The notes under the pieces were generated by a model. That model made no database searches and was not told where the DNA came from. It was given only the letters and a program-made list of their open reading frames with translations. A program made the translations under genes and the position numbers. 64,000 nt of DNA from Escherichia coli (GTDB lineage Bacteria > Pseudomonadota > Gammaproteobacteria > Enterobacterales > Enterobacteriaceae), in NCBI RefSeq assembly GCF_009931435.1, contig NZ_CP043414.1, one strand, 5' to 3'. Positions 56,856-64,000 of this stretch are shown piece by piece; the first letter of the stretch is position 1; every line of letters starts with the position of its first letter.

Positions 56856-57059
56856 TTACAGCAACTGGTGAGGGCTGGCATAAGTTGCCGGTGTTTCGGT
56901 AGAGTCACGTTCATCCACCACGCGGAGTGAATCACCGTTTTCAGCGACCTTGTTAATCAGTTCAGCGAGATTAACACCATCGACGTCAACGACAATGCGC
57001 CCCATGTTCAGCGCCTGCACGTTAACGCTGTCGGCTTCCAGCGTCAGGGCCAGTTTCAT
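56856..57059 (-). CDS. yeeW: YeeW-like small protein (CP4-44-type island)
   Basis: 67-aa ORF directly downstream of cbtA, as in K-12 CP4-44. Confidence 0.5.
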   Translation of the reverse strand: MKLALTLEADSVNVQALNMGRIVVDVDGVNLAELINKVAENGDSLRVVDERDSTETPATYASPHQLL

Positions 57060-57433
57060 CGTTTCGCCTCCGGATGCTTCCCCAGGGTAATGTTATTTAC
57101 CGTTCTGTAATTGTCGCGGGTCATCAGGCCTGTTGCCCGGCGAGCCCGGAGGATATCAATACTGTTTATTAACTGAGAGCGGGGACAAGTGCTGAATCCC
57201 GGCTGGTCGGTACGCACCAGCGCGTATTTTTCCACGAGAAAATTCACCGCATCACACAGTGAAATGCCAGCTTCAATATGCTGCTCAATCACACGTTCAT
57301 CGGCGAACGGTGTGTCATTCAGTGTAAGGCCGTAATGCTGGCCCAGTAGTCGGGAGAGCAGAGTCTGCCAGATGGTGACGGGGGACGGGCAGCTCGATGC
57401 CTCCCGTACGTGTGTATCGGGTAATGTTTTCAT
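57056..57433 (-). CDS. cbtA: type IV toxin CbtA (YeeV), cytoskeleton-binding toxin
   Basis: 125-aa ORF MKTLPDTHVREASSCPSPVTIWQTLLSRLLGQHYGLTLNDTPFADERVIEQHIEAGISL... Confidence 0.9.
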   Translation of the reverse strand: MKTLPDTHVREASSCPSPVTIWQTLLSRLLGQHYGLTLNDTPFADERVIEQHIEAGISLCDAVNFLVEKYALVRTDQPGFSTCPRSQLINSIDILRARRATGLMTRDNYRTVNNITLGKHPEAKR

Positions 57434-57522
57434 ACTGAAGGTTTTCCTGATATGCAGAGATGAAAAATGGAAAAGTGGCGTGGTGAAAGCACCAGGCCGG
57501 AGCAGAAGGTTATTCCGGTGGT

Positions 57523-57891
57523 TTACTTTTTCGTTTCGGGCGTCGGATAAACAGCCAGATAAACGTAACCACCGCTACCGAGGGTGTCAGCTTTGCAGGT
57601 CAGACCTTTCGCATACAGCGTGACGGTATGCTGATGGCGGGGATTCAGTTCACCGCTGGTGAGCATGAGTTCCAGTTGTTTCATCAGCAGCGGAAAGGCC
57701 TGGTCCAGGTGGTACGCATCTGCATCGCTGAACAGGCCTCTGATACCGGCGCGGTCGGCAAGGTAATGCAGGCGGTTACCCTCCTGCACCAGACGTGCCC
57801 CGAAACAGGGCGTCACGGTGCAGGGCAGCCCCCACCAGGGGCGGTCGTGATTGTCGTCGGGAAGCATTGTCCCGGAGAGTGCGTCTGACAC
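57523..57891 (-). CDS. cbeA: antitoxin CbeA (YeeU)
   Basis: 122-aa ORF immediately upstream of cbtA. Confidence 0.9.
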   Translation of the reverse strand: MSDALSGTMLPDDNHDRPWWGLPCTVTPCFGARLVQEGNRLHYLADRAGIRGLFSDADAYHLDQAFPLLMKQLELMLTSGELNPRHQHTVTLYAKGLTCKADTLGSGGYVYLAVYPTPETKK

Positions 57892-58053
57892 GATAAAATC
57901 CTCACAGAAAATCGGTTAAGAATGGTTTAACGATGACAGGTCAGCCGGCGCGCAGACCGCCTTCGGTAAAGGTGTATTCGTTTATGAGCAGGGCCTCATC
58001 CACAGCGGCGTCTGAGCTCAGCCAGTCGTACTCGTTTTCCGGGTGACGGAACA

Positions 58054-61055: not shown

Positions 61056-61130
61056 GGTATTTACCTCTCTGAGTCATGACGATGACACTGACAAATCAGG
61101 TGATAAAGCGTAAAAGGCGCAGAATAGCCG

Positions 61131-63653
61131 TTATGCCGGTAACTCCGGGGGTAATGCTTCTTCCAGTCGGTTAACCATATTGCCGAGATGGGATGCATCA
61201 TATTCCATGACGGGGCGTTGCCTGATGATACTGACCACCAGTGGTTTGATTAACATATTGGTCGCGGCCCGTTGTTGTATACCGGCGGCGAAAATGATCT
61301 CCAGAGCATTCTGATCGATAACACGGGCCAGATTCTCGTTCAGATTTTCAATCTCATGTCCGGTCAGCAGGAAACTGCCGGCAAGCCATGTCACCTGCTC
61401 CTGAATCATTGCCAGAATTTTGACGCGATCTTCTTCAACCAGCGCTCCGGCAATTTTTCCTGATACAGCGGAGGCAATCATTCCCCCCAGAACACCGCCA
61501 ACCACACGCCCTGTCAGTGCACCAAATGGTCCCAGTGGACTGAACAGTATCCCGCCCGCCACTGACCCGACAGCTCCACCTGCCACACCGGAAGATGCCA
61601 CGGCAAGATTCCTGATGAACTGCGCACCGGAGATCCGTCCCCGCAACATTTTGATCATGTCAGGGCCGGTTGTGACAGCTACCAGTGCCAGAGATGTCAC
61701 CAGCGTACCCTTCATTACTTTGTTCAGGGCACTGATATTTCCTGCACCGGTCCCCTTCTGAAGAGCCAGTCGGACAGTCGGGCTGGCAGTCGAAAAATCA
61801 ATGTGCTTCAGCATACCCTGAACAACACTGAGCCGGTGGAGTTGCTGGGTTGTGACGTAGACAGCCAGTGTGCGGGTGAAGGTTTTTCCTGCCTGGACAG
61901 CAGCTGTCTGCAGGGCAGCATCGCGATCGCCGGTGCTGAGCCAGAAGACCGATGCCGTCAGGGCAAAACTGATCCCTCCGGCCGCCAGACTGACAACCGA
62001 ACCCTCGGCAATATCATAAGTGACCGATTCGATGGTCCCGAACCGGGTGATATTACGGGCCTGAGTATAAGTCAGATGTCCCCGACGAATCAGCCGGGAC
62101 GCTTCTGCGGGATCGGTTACACCGGGTACTTTACCTTCGCGGATCTTATTCCTCATGGTTTCAACAGCGCCGGCATACTGATCACGGGGGACTTCCAGTT
62201 GCATGGGGCCATTATTTCCCATGTAACGATACTGTCCGTTTTGTCCGTCGAATGCCGCACCGACGCTACGGGCTGCAGTTGAACAATATTTCGTCTGGAT
62301 TTCTGTTCCGCTGACCAGCCTGTCTGCTCCATTTCTGGCATTATTATCACCGAGGATCCGTGCGTTTTTCAGACGGACTCTGTCGACAATATGGTTTCCC
62401 CGTTCAGCGGCAAACCCATGTCCCTGCCCTCCGGAAGCAAACATTTTCTCATTTGTACTCCAGGTTTCCGGCAGTTTCATGAGAATCAGACCATTCGCCG
62501 TTGCATCGGAAATAAAGCTGTTGTAAGGGCGTTCATAAATTTCCTGACACAGTGTTTCTGTTTCGCGACAAAGAGAGGAGCAGTACCATTCCGGATCCGG
62601 CTTATGATTTTCCGGGGCATGATGTACTTCTGTCAGCCCGCAGGAGGCACAGATACGAAGCTCATCCACGTGATGGAATGATACAAAACGGCGACCTTCT
62701 GAAAAGGGATACCAGTCACCGCCGTCCAGGCAACGATCGAGAAAATCGTCATTTGCTTCCGGTGATAAATTCAGGCGGTTCCGGAAGAGCGTTTTCAGTT
62801 CATCAGGTGTGAATGACAGGTTCTCTTTCAACTGTTCGTTAAACCCTGCCATGTTTCTTTCATACCAGGCATTGTTCAGTAACCAGTTTCCGTCTGCCAG
62901 TTCAAATTCCCTCAGCTCTCCCCGGGAAATCCGTTGAGAAATGAGCGTCAGCCAGATGCGCTCCGTCAGTGAGTCAGGAAGGCTGTAATCGTTTTGCAAA
63001 CTGGTCAGCCACGATTTACTGTTGAGCACCGGTTGTTCTTCCAGTGTCTGGCTGATGGCACAGGTCAGTTTTTTCAGCGCCTGGATCTGGCTGGCCGCCC
63101 ATAGCAGCGTCACTAATGCAGCCAGCCAGTACAACAACCCGCCCCACCACATCAGTGACGGTGAAATATCGTACTGTAACGCGATCAATGGTGCGCATGC
63201 AGAACACGCCATAAGGAAAAAGGCAGTATAAAAACAGCAGTAATACCCGTTAATTTCCTTGCTGATATCTTCTGGTGTGATCCCGTTCTGCTGAATGTTT
63301 TTGATCTGCAGGGGAACAGCCAGCAGACCACCGGCGAGAGCGGTGGTCAGAATAAATTTCACAGAGTCAAAGGTGCGAGCCTCCAGCGCGATATGTTTAC
63401 CATCAAGTCCCCACATGAAGCTGATGATCATTCCGGCAATCGTCAGAAATACGCCTGCCAGCCAGCGAATATGGAACAACCGGGTTATGCGTTCGGTGAT
63501 ATAGCCAGCCAGTAAGGCCGGGCCGAACAGACACAGCAATATGAGCCCTGCCAGCGCAGAAGCCGTGCTGATTAATGCTCTGAACAAAAGGCGAAGAATG
63601 GCAAATCCTGCGATCAGCAGGATCAGCGCGCCGACTATCTGTAACATAGTCAC
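61131..63653 (-). CDS. yeeR: large inner-membrane protein, YeeR-like (full length)
   Basis: 840-aa ORF; multi-TM N-terminus, Cys-rich segment (CASCGLTEVHH...WYCSSLC), Gly-rich hydrophobic C-terminal region; immediately downstream of flu. Confidence 0.6.
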   Translation of the reverse strand: MTMLQIVGALILLIAGFAILRLLFRALISTASALAGLILLCLFGPALLAGYITERITRLFHIRWLAGVFLTIAGMIISFMWGLDGKHIALEARTFDSVKFILTTALAGGLLAVPLQIKNIQQNGITPEDISKEINGYYCCFYTAFFLMACSACAPLIALQYDISPSLMWWGGLLYWLAALVTLLWAASQIQALKKLTCAISQTLEEQPVLNSKSWLTSLQNDYSLPDSLTERIWLTLISQRISRGELREFELADGNWLLNNAWYERNMAGFNEQLKENLSFTPDELKTLFRNRLNLSPEANDDFLDRCLDGGDWYPFSEGRRFVSFHHVDELRICASCGLTEVHHAPENHKPDPEWYCSSLCRETETLCQEIYERPYNSFISDATANGLILMKLPETWSTNEKMFASGGQGHGFAAERGNHIVDRVRLKNARILGDNNARNGADRLVSGTEIQTKYCSTAARSVGAAFDGQNGQYRYMGNNGPMQLEVPRDQYAGAVETMRNKIREGKVPGVTDPAEASRLIRRGHLTYTQARNITRFGTIESVTYDIAEGSVVSLAAGGISFALTASVFWLSTGDRDAALQTAAVQAGKTFTRTLAVYVTTQQLHRLSVVQGMLKHIDFSTASPTVRLALQKGTGAGNISALNKVMKGTLVTSLALVAVTTGPDMIKMLRGRISGAQFIRNLAVASSGVAGGAVGSVAGGILFSPLGPFGALTGRVVGGVLGGMIASAVSGKIAGALVEEDRVKILAMIQEQVTWLAGSFLLTGHEIENLNENLARVIDQNALEIIFAAGIQQRAATNMLIKPLVVSIIRQRPVMEYDASHLGNMVNRLEEALPPELPA

Positions 63654-63767
63654 TCCGTGATGAATATCATGTTATTGTTAATGCCAGCGAATGTGGCGTT
63701 GAAGATCCGTTGCGCCGGTCCGGGTCCCGGTCATGATGACCGGGACCACAGAGAGGCGATGGTTCTG

Positions 63768-64000
63768 TCAGAAGGTCACATTCAGTGTGGCCTGACCGTT
63801 ATACCCTTCAGCGCTGCTGCCGCTGACGCTGTGGGCATAACCGGCCTGAACGCCCAGGGTGATATTTTCCCGGACACGGGCTTCCAGTCCGGCCTGCAGG
63901 TCCAGTGATGTGCCATTCTGTGAGGGAGAGAACGTCATCCCGCTGCCTGCAGTGGAAGTCCCCACACGCATATCTCCCCGGGAGCTGAAGGTGCGGATAA
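63768..64000 (-). CDS. flu: antigen 43 autotransporter, C-terminal beta-barrel end (5' part outside window)
   Basis: Minus-strand frame open to the window end, terminating ...RGDMRVGTSTAGSGMTFSPSQ...YNGQATLNVTF (autotransporter C-terminal Phe). Confidence 0.85.
   Translation of the reverse strand, partial: IRTFSSRGDMRVGTSTAGSGMTFSPSQNGTSLDLQAGLEARVRENITLGVQAGYAHSVSGSSAEGYNGQATLNVTF

Follow-up and report, generated by a model that had tools for sequence, protein, structure and literature searches.

The distal half of the Escherichia coli CP4-44 island, most probably in its undeleted and common form, read as separate functional blocks

The gene cluster agn43-yeeR-irmA of Escherichia coli has been described in three papers. 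In strain EC958 the three genes form a cotranscribed operon repressed by OxyR; cotranscription of irmA with the genes downstream was not seen there, and a deletion in MG1655 is described (Moriel 2016, PMC4807369). The cluster was assigned to CP4-44, with yeeR truncated and irmA, aec70 and aec71 missing in K-12, and its expression was found to be repressed by H-NS/Hha and linked to extra copies of hha (Bernabeu 2019, PMC6480617). In strain 042 irmA has its own promoter, and cotranscription with agn43 is not shown there (Prieto 2022, PMC9431211). Here we analyzed the same genes at one end of a 64,000-nucleotide stretch of E. coli DNA (contig NZ_CP043414.1; the whole stretch is called the window below), at positions 56856-64000, which an initial annotation had described from the sequence alone as a CP4-44-like island with a more complete gene set than K-12. 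Work published between 2016 and 2022 had already covered the cluster, its association with Ag43 and IrmA and the existence of a deleted copy in K-12; the finding made here is correct and not new. The gene identities, the locus, the deletion endpoints, the prevalence and the hairpins given below are results of the present analysis; terminator-like hairpins and exact K-12 breakpoints are not found in the available parts of Moriel 2016, Bernabeu 2019 and Prieto 2022.

In our reading, to which we give a probability of roughly 93%, positions 56856-64000 are the distal half of a CP4-44 genomic island without the deletion, the common form in E. coli, and are organized in separate functional blocks. 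The location follows from the flanks and from alignment. A 7.5-kb query matched with 100% identity over its whole length in eleven E. coli chromosomes of enterotoxigenic E. coli (ETEC)-type strains, including TW11681 and 504239. Flank evidence was taken from the near-identical TW11681, since only the tmaR-side flank falls inside the window itself: the island of TW11681 lies between cobU on one side and tmaR (yeeX), yeeA and sbmC on the other, which is the CP4-44 site of K-12. With these flanks, the run from flu to cbtA-yeeW and K-12 DNA aligning at 93–99.8% identity, the locus is the orthologue of CP4-44, as had been proposed. Some part of the query was matched in 5,022 of 5,426 complete genomes, at a median of three places per genome, and the full array, counted where a single place covered 80% or more of the query, was present in 1,691 of them.

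The comparison with K-12 also bore out the fuller gene set, since the two copies differ here by a clean 3,336-bp deletion in K-12. They share the site, the gene order and the truncated yeeW, whereas K-12 has lost the 3' third of yeeR, irmA, the DUF905 and DUF932 genes, ardB and the 5' end of yeeS. Alignment by blastn and reading of the junction sequences placed the segment absent from K-12 at 58791-62126, from yeeR codons 508–838 into yeeS: K-12 positions 2074426-2076299 pair with 64000-62127 of the window at 99.8% identity and 2076302-2077038 with 58790-58054 at 96.6%. Both K-12 breakpoints lie inside reading frames, one in yeeR and one in yeeS. Of the 838 aa of YeeR, K-12 retains residues 1–507, to which the junction adds three codons (E-E-R-stop), giving 510 aa; K-12 YeeS (148 aa) starts from a Met inside the full-length protein, and the 4-nt ATGA overlap between the two K-12 genes is a product of the junction, which is present whole in 385 genomes. 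K-12 'yeeR' and 'yeeS' are thus deletion remnants and unfit as reference forms of their families. Microhomology was considered as a source of the deletion and rejected: CCCGG stands at both breakpoints in the window, but the K-12 junction reads GAGG there, so that no simple repeat-mediated event can be reconstructed from the window allele.

All eleven minus-strand open reading frames (ORFs) of the array were confirmed in the ORF list for 54–64 kb with the coordinates first given for them, and the gene-family calls stood throughout in the Pfam domain search, which had been named as the check, and in matches to the PDB. The array opens with the 3' end of agn43/flu, encoding the Ag43 autotransporter (63768-64000; the gene continues past the window end), recognized by 99.8% identity to K-12 flu-yeeR and by the RefSeq agn43 of TW11681. 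Next comes full-length yeeR (61131-63647), for which RefSeq sets the start at ATG 63647, giving 838 aa (the longest ORF has 840 aa); its assignment draws on the ORF, on PF27347 YeeR_C found on a cluster representative and on homologues, and on AlphaFold2 models. A protein noted at first only for its signal peptide is IrmA (aec69; 60600-61055), the secreted interleukin-receptor mimic: it has the IrmA domain (Pfam, 2.1e-37), an N-terminal signal peptide and a place downstream of agn43-yeeR, and the match to PDB 5EK5 (2.8e-83) spans residues 24–151. What had been called a small ORF is a DUF905 gene of 77 aa (60288-60521; Pfam DUF905, 9.5e-18), which is aec70 by gene order and a paralogue of ykfF (46% identity to YkfF). 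The DUF932 gene behind it (59370-60188, 272 aa; Pfam DUF932, 7.4e-52) is aec71 by gene order and a paralogue of yafZ and yfjQ, with 75% identity to YafZ and YfjQ; a literature search on DUF932, antirestriction and RadC returned nothing specific about DUF932 function.

The remaining genes are those of a backbone module. An antirestriction gene of the ArdB/KlcA family (58830-59315, 161 aa) was identified by its PF03230 domain (Pfam Antirestrict, 2.4e-37) and by similarity to solved ArdB and KlcA proteins (PDB 2WJ9, 1.4e-100; KlcA 2KMG, 8.4e-21). It is followed by yeeS (58338-58814, longest ORF from 58829), which encodes a RadC-like JAB protein of 158 aa (Pfam RadC, 1.5e-44) whose metalloprotease (JAMM) motif HxHx7Sx2D, read in the translation as HNHPSGEVTPSKAD, is intact, and by yeeT (58054-58275, 73 aa; Pfam DUF987, 5.2e-38), whose product is 97% identical to K-12 YeeT. 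The antitoxin gene cbeA (yeeU; 57523-57891; Pfam CbeA_antitoxin, 4.7e-53; PDB 2H28 of YeeU, 1.1e-77) lies directly upstream of the toxin gene cbtA (yeeV; 57056-57433; Pfam CbtA_toxin, 9.9e-62), both domains being found. Their products are 92.6% (CbeA) and 89.5% (CbtA) identical to the characterized K-12 type IV pair, which upholds the type IV identity given to them initially; at about 90% identity, CbtA and CbeA would work as a type IV toxin and antitoxin with FtsZ and MreB as targets. K-12 CbtA reportedly inhibits polymerization of FtsZ and MreB, and CbeA is reported to act on these targets, not on the toxin (Tan 2011; Masuda 2012). The array closes with yeeW (56856-57059), reduced to an N-terminal DUF5983 domain (Pfam DUF5983_N, 4.5e-29) and annotated by RefSeq as a pseudogene at 56883-57059, 'missing C-terminus'. 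PADLOC gave no defense-system match for the nine array proteins other than YeeR, and Rfam gave no RNA family inside 56–64 kb at E ≤ 0.1.

Island clusters with the same genes in the same order, flu-yeeR-irmA(aec69)-aec70-aec71, occur in uropathogenic, enteroaggregative and avian pathogenic E. coli, and the solved protein 5EK5 matched by IrmA is that of CFT073. The cluster in the window differs from them in standing at the CP4-44 site of an ETEC-like strain and not in a pheV, serX or selC island. In the organization that we propose, a first block, agn43-yeeR-irmA, would serve surface and host interaction and end at a terminator-like hairpin behind irmA. Its transcription would depend on the phase-variable, OxyR/Dam-controlled agn43 promoter known from other strains; cotranscription and regulation are carried over from that literature. 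Ag43 would account for autoaggregation and IrmA would act as a secreted cytokine-receptor mimic, with YeeR as an uncharacterized membrane protein. The DUF905 gene, with its own terminator-like hairpin, would make up a second block. The third would be the backbone module of DUF932, ArdB/KlcA, RadC-like JAB, DUF987, CbeA, CbtA and the DUF5983 fragment, a module also present in CP4-6, CP4-57 and many pathogenicity islands. Judged by homology to characterized proteins, on which all the biochemical activities named here are based, ArdB would block type I restriction, ArdB-type antirestriction and the RadC-like JAB protein would serve establishment of the element or anti-defense, and CbtA/CbeA would serve retention by stabilizing it. 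Separately, we observed a Hha/YmoA-family gene upstream of agn43 in the TW11681 island, beyond the window end, in agreement with the published association of extra hha copies with the yeeR-irmA cluster.

The initial annotation had likened the genes missing from K-12 CP4-44 to the layout of CP4-6 and CP4-57, which holds in part. CP4-6 (ykfA...ykfI) and CP4-57 (yfjP...ypjF) contain paralogues of seven of ten array proteins at 45–82% amino-acid identity: 61–65% for CbtA, 63–67% for CbeA, 60–64% for DUF987, 71–82% for the RadC-like protein, 67–69% for ArdB, about 75% for DUF932 and about 46% for DUF905, whose CP4-57 copy is a pseudogene. The order DUF905, ArdB, RadC-like, DUF987, antitoxin, toxin is common to all three elements. 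The placing of DUF932 is not: in CP4-6 and CP4-57 it adjoins a GTPase gene and the cargo sits between DUF932 and DUF905, unlike the window, where the cargo (agn43-yeeR-irmA-DUF905) precedes DUF932. Nor did tblastn find a match to IrmA or YeeR in CP4-6 or CP4-57.

The name CP4-44 and the traditional K-12 annotation as a cryptic prophage imply that the region is a true, if defective, prophage, and several of its proteins do match PHROG families, for example anti-restriction and a RadC-type 'DNA repair protein'. We consider this unlikely. None of the ten window proteins tested matched a PHROGs capsid, tail, terminase, lysis or replication family, and the TW11681 island is annotated in RefSeq without such genes and without an integrase. 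The backbone of GTPase, DUF932, ArdB, RadC-like and CbtA/CbeA genes moreover recurs in pathogenicity islands and in an island of the Enterobacteriaceae chromosome GCA_030183605.2. Because structural and replication matches and an annotated integrase are all missing, 'degenerate integrative island' describes CP4-44 better than 'prophage', and the lack of an annotated integrase makes its mobility historical at best.

A degenerate island in separate blocks also has to be weighed against a single polycistronic, translationally coupled operon running from flu to yeeW. All the genes lie on one strand, with intergenic gaps of 120, 75, 78, 99, 54, 15, 62, 162, 89 and −4 nt from agn43 to yeeW, the last junction being an ATGA overlap of cbtA and yeeW (57056-57059) and the shortest gap the 15 nt between ardB and yeeS; no clear promoter was placed within the block from DUF932 to cbtA by a sigma-70 consensus scan, which returned 11 sites where 6.2 were expected and is uninformative. 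Against this stand two strong hairpins with U-rich tails that fall exactly in the irmA/DUF905 and DUF905/DUF932 gaps and so bracket the DUF905 gene: one directly 3' of irmA (60547-60575, minus strand; 12-bp stem, −28.8 kcal/mol, z −4.4) and one directly 3' of the DUF905 gene (60237-60266, minus strand; 13-bp stem, −22.6 kcal/mol, z −5.4). A terminator-like hairpin occupies the same position after ykfF in K-12 CP4-6. The first hairpin agrees with the lack of detected cotranscription of irmA with downstream genes in Moriel 2016 (PMC4807369), and the promoter of irmA in strain 042 (Prieto 2022, PMC9431211) likewise argues against one transcript. For the irmA_4509 allele, which is expressed, Prieto 2022 names ACCTTTTA as a candidate −10 element; this exact sequence is absent from the yeeR-irmA spacer of the window (61056-61130), which reads GCCTTTTA there.

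Coupling by translation fared no better. It had been suggested from genes that abut or overlap, above all yeeS and the antirestriction gene at 58829/58830, yet every gene has its own Shine-Dalgarno sequence at its start codon and cbtA/yeeW is the only overlap among the ten junctions, the other gaps being 15–162 nt. No Shine-Dalgarno sequence precedes the yeeS ATG at 58829, the one adjoining the ardB stop; the ATG at 58814, preceded by GGAGG at a distance of 8 nt, is the RefSeq start, agrees with CP4-6 YkfG, which aligns from residue 6 of the long ORF, and leaves the 15-nt gap. By these start signals, the abutment is an artefact of taking the longest ORF. The single array of the initial annotation therefore stands as a one-strand run of the named ORFs and is interrupted by the two internal hairpins; that it forms one coupled operon is very improbable.

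Hardly credible at all is the reverse history, in which CP4-44 was originally K-12-like, K-12 has kept that layout and the additional genes were inserted later. In its favor, the K-12 annotation shows yeeR and yeeS as intact genes that overlap neatly by 4 nt. Against it, the K-12 breakpoints interrupt both reading frames, YeeR homologues from many proteobacterial genera have 820–850 aa with a conserved core up to the C-terminus, CP4-6 and CP4-57 have retained DUF905, DUF932 and antirestriction genes together with a RadC-like gene of full length, at least 1,691 genomes have the long form compared with 385 that have the K-12 junction, and Moriel 2016 (PMC4807369) and Bernabeu 2019 (PMC6480617) both call the difference a K-12 deletion. 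With a YeeR of about 830 aa as the proteobacterial family norm and breakpoints inside two reading frames, the event would be a deletion in K-12 and not an insertion here; since homologues of 820–850 aa are conserved up to the C-terminus, the long form is probably ancestral, and K-12 CP4-44 would derive from the undeleted layout by a single 3,336-bp deletion.

Some points nevertheless weigh against an undeleted island in separate blocks. The hairpins that divide it are predictions from sequence, obtained by scan and folding, and the third block has no promoter placed by the sigma-70 scan mentioned above. The window does not reach the agn43 promoter with its OxyR/Dam sites, and the TW11681 island has no integrase annotated by RefSeq. 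Finally, the direction of the difference from K-12, deletion there as opposed to insertion here, is itself deduced from comparison.

We also examined YeeR. Membrane helices at its N-terminus are followed by a zinc-ribbon-like motif of four cysteines, by a soluble domain that is conserved, and by a helical region rich in glycine at the C-terminus. The 840-aa ORF had no match in local copies of Pfam and NCBIfam beyond noise-level hits to C19orf12 and SUR7, and none in a PDB sequence search; PF27347 YeeR_C is nevertheless found on the 99%-identical cluster representative and on homologues, and the protein has the length (about 830 aa) and the conserved C-terminal 500 residues of that family. Both gamma- and beta-proteobacteria have homologues of 820–850 aa, examples being Enterobacteriaceae, Methylomonas, Pseudomonas, Shewanella, Herbaspirillum, Cupriavidus and Dyella. 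When 36 homologues were aligned, 53 columns between residues 333 and 811 were invariant, among them C333, C336, C356 and C360 of the zinc-ribbon-like motif and the motifs GHGFAAE (E415), GADRLV (D442), IQTKY (Q451, K453) and EVPxDQY.

PD-(D/E)xK nucleases have an alpha-beta-beta-beta-alpha core with catalytic residues E, D and (D/E/Q)xK. In an AlphaFold2 model of the YeeR domain (mean predicted local distance difference test, pLDDT, 81.5), a helix and two consecutive strands carry the invariant motifs, an arrangement like that of such a core. The model of the full-length protein had no PDB match at E ≤ 0.001 in Foldseek, the top hits being helical transporters and a weak ESCRT-II winged helix. 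PADLOC reported weak, co-linear matches to PDC-M09B, a phage-defense candidate (E 5.8e-6 and 4.9e-5), with no single stretch passing alone. YeeR and PDC-M09B share, in the same order, HG..AE, D....G..(I/V)Q(T/S)K(Y/F) and (V/I)PKD, then a glycine-rich hydrophobic region; they differ in that YeeR is about 350 residues longer on the N-terminal side and has a zinc ribbon, and the partner PDC-M09A is not adjacent to yeeR in the window, PDC-M09 itself being only a candidate system. Family-to-family hhalign paired YeeR 438–497 with M09B 107–163, with the D...QxK and PKD motifs aligned to each other, and gave a probability of only 20%; for the YeeR family against a single PDC-M09B sequence it was 3.9%. 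A match between YeeR and PDC-M09B in hmmsearch was set aside: it covered the glycine-rich segment only and by itself reflects composition. The nuclease-like core and the likeness to PDC-M09B are thus suggestive and unproven, and we found no paper linking YeeR to a nuclease or to phage defense. That full-length YeeR might be a membrane-anchored nuclease of PD-(D/E)xK fold, distantly related to PDC-M09B and acting as a defense or abortive-infection effector co-expressed with Ag43 under phase variation in E. coli, we regard as a doubtful, speculative proposal. If true, this function would be invisible to studies of K-12, whose YeeR lacks the last 331 residues.

The surroundings of YeeR homologues were varied. 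The island of GCA_030183605.2 (positions 5761-11523 of the stretch analyzed), built on the same GTPase-DUF932-AlpA backbone, contains a YeeR paralogue of 68% identity that directly follows a WYL regulator and a true PDC-M09A/PDC-M09B pair, with DndBCDE and a PIN-domain gene beside it. A homologue in Methylomonas has HicAB, a TIR-domain protein and IS66 in its vicinity, and other homologues stand among ordinary genes. YeeR is a membrane protein of about 830 aa conserved in proteobacteria, and its nuclease-like core together with the defense-island neighbors gives a hypothesis that can be tested.

Beyond yeeW, the distal end of the island is occupied by gene remnants and insertion sequences (IS). 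A fragment of a DUF957 gene (pseudogene; 56730-56822, minus strand) was located from the RefSeq annotation of the identical TW11681 sequence, with coordinates converted. The conserved module is terminated by a transposase remnant of the IS110 family with frame breaks (55543-56570, minus strand; RefSeq IS110 coding sequence and reading of the sequence), and the distal end itself carries a copy of IS629 (IS3 family; 51901-55384, plus strand; Rfam and RefSeq) with a group II intron inside orfB. The intron measures about 2.27 kb (about 52642-54911); its 5' GTGTG stands at about 52642, ltrA occupies 53298-54821 and domains V/VI span 54825-54911. Rfam matched the ALIL pseudoknot of IS629 and Intron_gpII, both further down than 56–64 kb. 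K-12 homology stops at 56472 and starts again at 51577 (blastn), with the IS110-family remnant and the intron-split IS629 in between; K-12 lacks this IS629 and the longer IS110 remnant and has yoeD/yoeF there. In K-12, the pseudogene yoeD seems to be what is left, in shorter form, of this IS110-family element.

Two further differences from TW11681 were seen elsewhere in the window. TW11681 has an IS2 between yefM and yoeB, a place without IS2 in the window (40821-40825), which marks the source of the window as closely related to TW11681 and distinct from it. The colanic-acid genes (3564-14060) are only about 97.6% identical to TW11681, compared with >99% elsewhere, which suggests a recombination boundary near the O-antigen/colanic-acid region.

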